Virus record (IMG/VR): IMGVR_UViG_3300029762_000052
Direction: 5' to 3' (one strand)
Source: a virus
Lineage: Duplodnaviria; Heunggongvirae; Uroviricota; Caudoviricetes
Length of the DNA: 8,212 bases
How positions within the stretch are numbered: position 1 is the first letter of the stretch; each line of letters opens with the position of its first letter. A model generated the notes under the pieces. The model ran no database searches. It had not been told where the DNA came from and saw nothing but the letters and a program-made list of their open reading frames with translations. Shown here one piece after another: positions 4,268 through 4,330 of this stretch. The translations under genes were made by a program, and so were the position numbers.

Positions 4268-4277
4268 ATCAGCCTCC

Positions 4278-4306
4278 TGAAAATAAAAAAACCGCCGCAG
4301 CGGTCC
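4278..4306 (-). terminator. Short intrinsic-terminator-like hairpin plus U-tract between terL and the capsid gene (candidate attenuator)
   Basis: Minus-sense RNA reads GACCGC-UGCG-GCGGUU followed by UUUUUAUUUU (a 5-6 bp GC stem, tetraloop and U run). It is followed immediately by AGGAGG and the GTG start at 4267. The stem is short, so termination efficiency is uncertain. Confidence 0.35.
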
Positions 4307-4330
4307 ATGATGGTTACAGGGTGAACAGGG

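Follow-up and report, generated by a model that had tools for sequence, protein, structure and literature searches.

The stretch of DNA under study, referred to below as the window, comprises 8,212 nucleotides of a Caudoviricetes virus (IMG/VR virus record IMGVR_UViG_3300029762_000052) and contains, in the short gap between the terminase gene terL and a prohead protease - major capsid fusion gene, a GC hairpin that is followed by a U-tract and precedes the ribosome-binding site of the capsid gene. The data presented here suggest that this element is probably a genuine Rho-independent terminator on the coding strand, located within a lambdoid late morphogenetic operon, that would be read through by Q-modified RNA polymerase. 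All real genes of the window are located on the minus strand, their identities being supported by Pfam, and the window represents the head module of a lambdoid (E. coli lambda-like) prophage of the BP-4795-like, Shiga toxin (Stx) phage type. The terL-capsid junction is composed of the following features:

4331..5992, minus strand: terL, terminase large subunit, 553 aa (open reading frame list; Pfam TerL_ATPase, 1.6e-11, and TerL_nuclease, 5.2e-10)
4333..4331, minus strand: TAA stop codon of terL
4330..4268, minus strand: terL-capsid gap, 63 nt
4307..4330, minus strand: variable 5' part of the gap from the terL stop codon to the hairpin, ~24 nt, with the lowest conservation in the junction alignment
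4306..4289, minus strand: hairpin GGACCGC-UGCG-GCGGUUU, detected by scan and by minimum free energy (MFE) folding
4306..4300, 4299..4296 and 4295..4289, minus strand: 5' arm, loop and 3' arm of the hairpin
4291..4280, minus strand: U-tract UUUUUUUAUUUU, with seven U (4291..4285) followed by A4284 and U4283
4278..4273, minus strand: Shine-Dalgarno (SD) sequence AGGAGG, separated by a 5-nt spacer from the GTG start codon
2330..4267, minus strand: prohead protease - major capsid fusion gene, 645 aa (Pfam Peptidase_S78 and Phage_capsid)

The minus strand of the gap reads TAA-CCCTGTTCACCCTGTAACCATCATGGACCGCTGCGGCGGTTTTTTTATTTTCAGGAGGCTGAT-GTG. The core of the hairpin, ACCGC/GCGGU (4304..4291), consists of five G/C-rich pairs and is lengthened by A-U and G.U pairs, with a free energy (dG) of -8 to -10 kcal/mol. 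When contexts of 91 nt and 139 nt are folded, both the MFE and the centroid structure retain the hairpin; the 12-nt U-rich tract adjoining the AGGAGG motif is unpaired. Since the hairpin begins 25 nt past the terL stop codon, the distance would, judged by the usual ribosome footprint, be enough for the hairpin to fold with a ribosome positioned on the stop codon. According to the HUB model, strong intrinsic terminators combine a hairpin, a U-tract and bubble-edge dinucleotides in the arrangement GC(U)7RU, the last U of which forms the 3' end of the RNA (bioRxiv 10.64898/2026.05.29.728758). The corresponding sequence of the window, GG(U)7AU, matches this arrangement in the G at position -11, the seven U, the purine (A) at -2 and the U at -1, and has G instead of C at -10, such that three of the four bubble-edge positions agree and the RNA 3' end is predicted near position 4283.

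A strict scan, requiring five or more stem pairs, of which four or more are G-C, and, within one base, at least 6 T in 8 positions, was applied to both strands of the window and returned the terL-capsid hairpin as the sole match. Dinucleotide shuffles yielded 0.415 strict sites per window, corresponding to ~0.002 per given 63-nt gap on the sense strand. In this respect, the sequence confirms an earlier note on this DNA, which had described a terminator-like hairpin with a U-tract just before a strong SD and a GTG start codon; the flanking genes had been named there as terL and a capsid gene, an assignment that is upheld by the Pfam domains listed above. A lenient terminator scan of the window revealed no enrichment (5 sites vs 7.9 expected), a scan of the whole window with Rfam covariance models at E<=1 gave zero matches, and a sigma-70 promoter scan detected no promoter within the terL-capsid gap. 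The plus strand likewise contains the hairpin, which is followed there by CCATGATGG and by no T-tract; accordingly, a bidirectional terminator was rejected and the element is regarded as unidirectional.

The protease-capsid fusion has 2489 homologues at E<=1e-20, and the protein deduced from its GTG start codon (4267..4265) aligns at the N-terminus as M-T-L-K to relatives starting with ATG. In a comparison of 80 close loci, the stem core, the U-tract, the SD and the GTG start codon turned out to be invariant save for +/-1 T, the loop being either UGCG or UCCG and the outer pair either G.U or A-U. A distant set with 70-77% protein identity covered Enterobacter, Kluyvera, Buttiauxella, Citrobacter, Atlantibacter, Phytobacter and Kosakonia as well as Pantoea, Rouxiella, Serratia, Entomohabitans, Salmonella and dozens of IMG/VR variants. 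The junction of these distant relatives can be written as ACCCGC-N4-GCGGG-UUUUUU-C-R-UUUC-[A/U]GGAGG-N6-7-AUG, with a gap length of 57-58 nt that is constant in most of them and at least 10 different tetranucleotides in the hairpin loop. The relatives keep the G, six U and the C followed by R-U, the purine at tract positions 8-9 (R-U) being G or A. The SD is invariant as AGGAGG in the E. coli clade, appears as [A/T]GGAGG in most Enterobacterales relatives and is weaker (GGAGA) in a Pantoea-like clade.

A count of pairs in 36 distinct homologous sequences showed that 98% of the cells are paired, as against 32-55% in slid controls; four pairs are invariant, two vary one-sidedly and one changes on both sides. 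At the latter, compensatory pair most sequences have C-G, with A-U taking its place in Snodgrassella and the E. coli clade; as this is the only pair of its kind, the covariation is thin. A column-wise comparison revealed that the noncoding stem, the U-tract and the SD are more conserved than the third positions of codons in the genes on either side, the least conserved parts of the junction being the 5' portion of the gap, the loop and the spacer between SD and start codon. Moreover, a hairpin with a U-tract occupies the same junction in the betaproteobacterial relatives Diaphorobacter, Acidovorax, Candidimonas, a Burkholderiaceae metagenome-assembled genome and one of two Snodgrassella loci; in the second locus (L111) the stem contains a C.A mismatch. 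Several of these betaproteobacterial elements are unrelated in sequence, and the U-tract is kept in all gamma- and betaproteobacterial relatives examined. The sequence comparisons thus indicate that the hairpin and the U-tract are under selection, being conserved far beyond neutral expectation. An IMG/VR variant (L132) carries, upstream of its position 1201, an insertion of ~30 nt in the hairpin loop that is itself self-pairing (GCGCTGA...TCAGCGC) and makes a longer hairpin, with the outer stem and the U-tract intact.

Of 5426 complete E. coli genomes, 1251 contain the terL-capsid junction, which also occurs in long-tailed lambdoid Stx phages, including BP-4795, 1717, YYZ-2008 and many Stx1a/Stx2 phages. 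In the relative L001 (99.9% identity over 901 bp) the module is part of the late operon, with lysis genes, tRNAs and the Q gene (PF06323) located upstream on the same strand, the latter ~12 kb upstream of the element. The Salmonella phage FSL SP-016 (L204), with 70% DNA identity, contains the same module downstream of Q on the same strand, its Q protein belonging to a different Pfam family (PF03589). The best full-length relative, L205, displays the same organisation, including a TonB-like gene that is also found in the window. Q- or N-modified polymerase reads through terminators kilobases downstream (PMC7326022), and the intrinsic terminators of lambdoid and Stx late units stop unmodified polymerase and are read through by the Q-modified enzyme (PMC7547250; PMC7326022). 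A literature search retrieved no paper describing the element in BP-4795-type phages, and the paper on the prophage small RNA HnrS mentions neither terminase nor capsid.

Two more sense-strand cassettes consisting of a hairpin, a U-tract and an SD were identified in the late operon, in syntenic positions of L001, L205 and SP-016:

L001 8137..8123 and 6293..6280, sense strand: sister cassettes of the major tail and the tape-measure gene
L205 11051..11037 and 9594..9581, sense strand: sister cassettes of the major tail and the tape-measure gene
SP-016 (L204) 23663..23650 and 22103..22090, sense strand: sister cassettes

The major-tail cassette reads CCCGC-CGCGU-GCGGG UUUUUUAUUAUC AGGAGG N4 AUG, and the tape-measure cassette ACCGC-UGCG-GCGGU UUUUUUUUCGUCC GGAGA ... 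AUG; in L001 the stem-loop of the latter (ACCGC-TGCG-GCGGT) is identical to that of the terL-capsid junction. Six cassettes from two phages all have 12-13 nt between hairpin and SD. Two explanations for the cassettes were considered and rejected. A terminator brought along by a moron does not account for the tape-measure cassette, which persists in L205 without the extra gene, and a partial terminator tuning the stoichiometry fails for two of the three cassettes, as the capsid and the tail tube are needed in larger amounts than the upstream products.

RNA polymerase that is not modified by Q and enters the operon via leaky read-through of tR', moron promoters or spurious upstream promoters would make the GC hairpin 4306..4289, pause on the seven U and release the RNA near position 4283. 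This release point would be located 5 nt before the capsid SD, such that the terminated RNA would lack the capsid ribosome-binding site and would be unable to express the capsid gene. After induction, Q-modified polymerase starting from pR' would pass the terminator and the two sister elements, and the whole operon would be obtained as one transcript, in which the hairpin and the unstructured U-rich tract would stay next to the strong SD and may aid translation or RNA stability. The terminator would thereby keep the structural genes silent without Q and insulate them from moron or spurious promoters; this benefit to the lysogen, like termination itself, is what we infer from the sequence, and read-through by Q-modified polymerase is assumed by analogy with established lambda biology. 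The earlier note had considered a terminator before the most abundant structural gene counter-intuitive. The arrangement would no longer be paradoxical because Q-modified polymerase would ignore the terminator; such an element is to be expected in a Q-antiterminated late operon, and phage HK97 has annotated equivalents.

Several observations weigh against a Q-gated terminator. The stem is short, with five strong pairs and a dG of only ~-8 to -10 kcal/mol, and position -10 is occupied by G instead of the preferred C, for which reasons the termination efficiency may be modest. The Q gene lies outside the window, and its linkage to the element is deduced from the relatives L001 and SP-016; in L205, the stretch that was fetched contains the upstream lysis genes and tRNAs, and the single candidate examined there gave no Q domain. 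Seven alphaproteobacterial relatives have a gap of 11-34 nt with no hairpin at the junction. In addition, the constant spacing of 12-13 nt between hairpin and SD, as well as the fact that the genes for the two most abundant virion proteins are each preceded by one of the three cassettes, would fit a leader acting on the ribosome-binding site equally well.

Such a post-transcriptional leader of the capsid gene is possible, if unlikely, as the principal role of the element. The hairpin would insulate the ribosome-binding site and block RNase E scanning or exonucleases, and the U-tract would serve as an S1 or standby site boosting initiation at AGGAGG-N5-GTG, the resemblance to a terminator being secondary; these roles are compatible with termination and the two are not mutually exclusive. 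Enhancers of the U-rich type precede atpE and form part of the leader of T7 gene 10, and E. coli mRNAs can be stabilised by stem-loops at the 5' end. The U-tract adjoins a perfect SD with the spacing that recurs in the six cassettes, the cassettes precede the genes for the capsid and the tail tube, and a second conserved hairpin just past the capsid stop codon brackets the cistron, as with lambda E and HK97 gp5. However, the conserved traits are specific to termination, namely the hairpin abutting at least 5-7 U, the G at -11 and the R-U at -2/-1, and the constraint on R-U at tract positions 8-9 is predicted by the terminator model and not by a generic model of a U-rich enhancer. An enhancer, moreover, needs no hairpin and a stabiliser needs no U-tract; the betaproteobacterial versions vary in their distance to the SD, with no clear SD in Diaphorobacter, and the same cassette is found before the low-copy tape-measure gene.

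A combined interpretation would assign both purposes to the element. The three cassettes before the capsid, tail-tube and tape-measure genes would represent Q-gated checkpoints that silence the structural proteins in the lysogen and, upon read-through, would act as insulator of the ribosome-binding site, S1 standby site and decay barrier setting a high output; together with the hairpin past the capsid gene they would delimit a protected segment of capsid mRNA, in a layout convergent with lambda E and HK97 gp4-gp5. Taken as one joint claim, this interpretation is doubtful.

It is improbable that the hairpin serves mainly as a 3' stabiliser or processing boundary of the terS-terL message, in which case it would guard the terminase mRNA from 3'-5' exonucleases after cleavage in the U-tract and would segment the lifetimes of the late transcript. 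Terminator hairpins raise the stability of upstream mRNAs, and the operon contains several intercistronic hairpins, one of them, after the capsid gene, without a U-tract; but terminase is needed in small amounts, such that there is no obvious gain from stabilising its mRNA, and a strictly conserved U-tract with R-U is not needed to block exonucleases. A neutral relic, that is a former operon-end terminator left at a mosaic module joint and having no present function, would agree with the position at the boundary of the packaging and head modules, where read-through by Q would render it harmless, but it is very improbable in view of the conservation of the stem and the U-tract above that of synonymous sites over ~25-30% divergence, and the compensatory pair, the free loop and the independent re-invention in other lineages argue for selection. 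The earlier note had offered three roles, those of transcript boundary, stabiliser of the 3' end and U-rich enhancer of translation, all of which are possible, and the sequence favours a terminator, representing a boundary for unmodified polymerase.

Two further features of the junction had been described in the earlier note:

4264..4308, minus strand: mini-ORF (short open reading frame) encoding MDRCGGFFIFRRLM, with ATG at 4308..4306, TGA at 4266..4264 and 14 sense codons
4331..4325 and 4322..4316, minus strand: direct repeat ACCCTGT

The mini-ORF exists as described in the earlier note with regard to its 14 codons and the TGA overlapping the capsid GTG, in a frame that differs from that of the capsid gene; its ATG is located at 4308 and not at 4309, and it is not conserved. 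This start codon is present in 86 of 178 related loci and absent from 87, with only GTG or TTG in the remaining 5, and the commonest E. coli allele has ACG at this position. As the window also lacks an SD upstream of the ATG, the mini-ORF is judged from the sequence to be a non-functional chance feature. The ACCCTGT repeat does occur twice, as the earlier note had stated; a 7-mer repeat is contained in ~6% of shuffles of the gap, most E. coli alleles carry a broken version of the repeat (ACACTGT or ACCCTGC), and other genera lack it. It is therefore due to chance, and a binding site was rejected since the repeat is at chance level and not conserved.

Two alternative pairings were likewise rejected. 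The 3' end of terL, GCG GTT TTT TT (4348..4338, GCGGUUUUUUU), duplicates the 3' arm and the U-tract of the terminator (GCGGTTTTTTT), and antiterminator pairing of this copy of GCGGU7 with the 5' arm can be drawn in the E. coli clade only and does not appear in either the MFE or the centroid fold. Sequestration of the SD by pairing of its CAGG with the CCCUG repeats, as seen in one MFE fold, has a z-score of only -1.8 and is impossible in other genera because CCCUG is lacking there. An attenuator under ribosome control, in which translation of the mini-ORF, spanning the hairpin and ending on the GTG, or of the terL 3' end with its copy of the 3' arm would toggle between terminator and antiterminator folds and tune capsid expression, deserves hardly any credence, because the mini-ORF, without an ATG in half of the related loci and without a preceding SD, and the repeat are neither conserved nor above chance, and because the upstream copy of GCGGU7 is clade-restricted and unused in the folds.

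The other genes of the window that surround the junction are:

7200..6835, minus strand: HNH endonuclease gene
6546..5989, minus strand: terS
2285..2064, minus strand: 73-aa open reading frame
2118..754, minus strand: portal gene

A conserved arrangement of SD, hairpin and start codon is located after the capsid stop codon (TGA, 2332..2330) at 2321..2283 on the minus strand. The AGGAGG motif at 2321..2316 adjoins a 9-bp hairpin ACGGGAGGC-GUGC-GCCUCCCGU (2315..2294) that has no U-tract, and the ATG (2285) of the 73-aa open reading frame follows 8 nt past this hairpin. Folding of the hairpin would bring the SD to ~8 nt from the start codon, a layout similar to that of T4 genes 38 and 25 with their split ribosome-binding sites. 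Almost all relatives that possess the fused gene, those from alphaproteobacteria among them, have a GC hairpin of differing sequence directly past the stop codon of the capsid gene; the layout of SD, hairpin and start codon itself is kept in the Enterobacterales relatives and recurs in HK97 after gp5, where it is annotated as a putative terminator.

At the downstream end of the window, a gene at 1..757 on the minus strand begins right at the stop codon of the portal gene, codes for tandem repeats of 54 aa and runs off the window; in the DNA, the repeats have a period of 162 nt and number at least 3.7 copies, with 92% matches. The repeat region is fused to the portal protein in L001 (861 aa) and forms a separate open reading frame in SP-016, the portal gene of L205 being annotated as frameshifted; on the opposite strand, the repeats give rise to a spurious 185-aa open reading frame with a weak R3H match. 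At the other end, a gene for a 113-aa lipoprotein-like protein (7574..7915, minus strand; TonB_C, 5.8e-15) is located between the lysis region and the HNH endonuclease gene. It is present in L205 and absent from L001 and hence moron-like, and it is preceded immediately upstream by a sigma-70-like site with an extended -10 element at 7960..7933. Downstream of this promoter-like site, the first strong terminator on the sense strand is the terL-capsid hairpin.

Three observations were made in relatives. An E. coli protein of 1079 aa (P0001) combines terminase, protease and capsid Pfam domains, its gene call crossing the gap, and could represent a deletion, a frameshift or an annotation artefact. 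The region of L001 from Q to the lysis genes (14000..28901) contains 36 terminator-like sites on both strands, vs 15.4 expected; the strict scan gives 12 sites on the sense strand of this region. In L205, four near-identical copies of CCCCTC-TCCG-GAGGGG with a U-tract are located at 30616, 28659, 28389 and 28129, with a spacing of ~260 nt.

If a Q-gated terminator is correct, the element adds another case of lambdoid and Stx prophages tying the expression of their structural genes strictly to Q, which is of relevance to prophage silencing in enterohaemorrhagic E. coli, as the head module is present in about a quarter of the complete genomes. Current understanding is unchanged by this finding, which is largely ordinary, internal terminators of lambdoid late operons being known. 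The dozens of variants with an invariant stem and U-tract and a free loop nevertheless constitute a natural test set for models of intrinsic termination, and the cassettes before the capsid and tail-tube genes of lambda, HK97 and the family of the window raise the question of whether internal terminators that are read through double as elements of translation or stability.

The element shares with the tR'/Q system of lambdoid phages the presence of an intrinsic terminator in the late transcription unit. However, tR' is located directly downstream of pR', functions as a regulatory switch and yields the small RNA StxS in Stx phages, whereas the terL-capsid element lies ~12 kb downstream among the structural genes and is not known to yield a regulatory RNA. 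The leaders of atpE and T7 gene 10 resemble it in an unstructured U/A-rich tract 5' of a strong SD, a hairpin upstream and an abundant gene product; they differ from it in that no hairpin abuts a U7 tract and in that they are not terminator-like.

A counterpart is found in phage lambda, where the D-E junction contains the hairpin GGCCGC-CUGU-GCGGCU followed by UUUUUUAC (6100-6122, within the region 6100..6134) just before the capsid gene E. This hairpin was missed by the lenient scan of lambda, although it complies with the rules, and was found by the strict scan. In lambda, too, the major capsid gene of a Q-dependent late operon thus comes after a hairpin and U-tract of terminator-like appearance; another such hairpin is located before J at the I-J junction (15466-15479), and the capsid gene E is followed by a hairpin (7164-7179). 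The head genes, however, are unrelated in sequence, and the D-E junction differs in its weak SD and in a second U-run before the ATG; the accessible literature yielded no paper giving the D-E hairpin a function.

In the lambdoid phage HK97 (NC_002167), putative terminators are annotated at 3309-3335 before the genes for the protease gp4 and the major capsid protein gp5, at 5192-5213 after gp5, at 6692-6719 before the major tail gene gp12 and at 8398-8422 before the tape-measure gene. The gene order of HK97 differs in that the portal gene precedes the protease and major capsid genes, whereas in the window terL is located before the fused protease-capsid gene and the portal gene after it, and the sequence of the HK97 capsid junction is not alignable with that of the window. 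Since the HK97 elements are themselves predictions, the kind of element described here is already on record, as a prediction only. The junctions nevertheless match those of the window family, an SD and a start codon coming after the hairpin and the U-tract in each of them, and the HK97 gp11-gp12 element, ACCCGCC-AGAT-GGCGGGTTTTCTTTTTCCAGGAGA, closely resembles the cassettes of that family.

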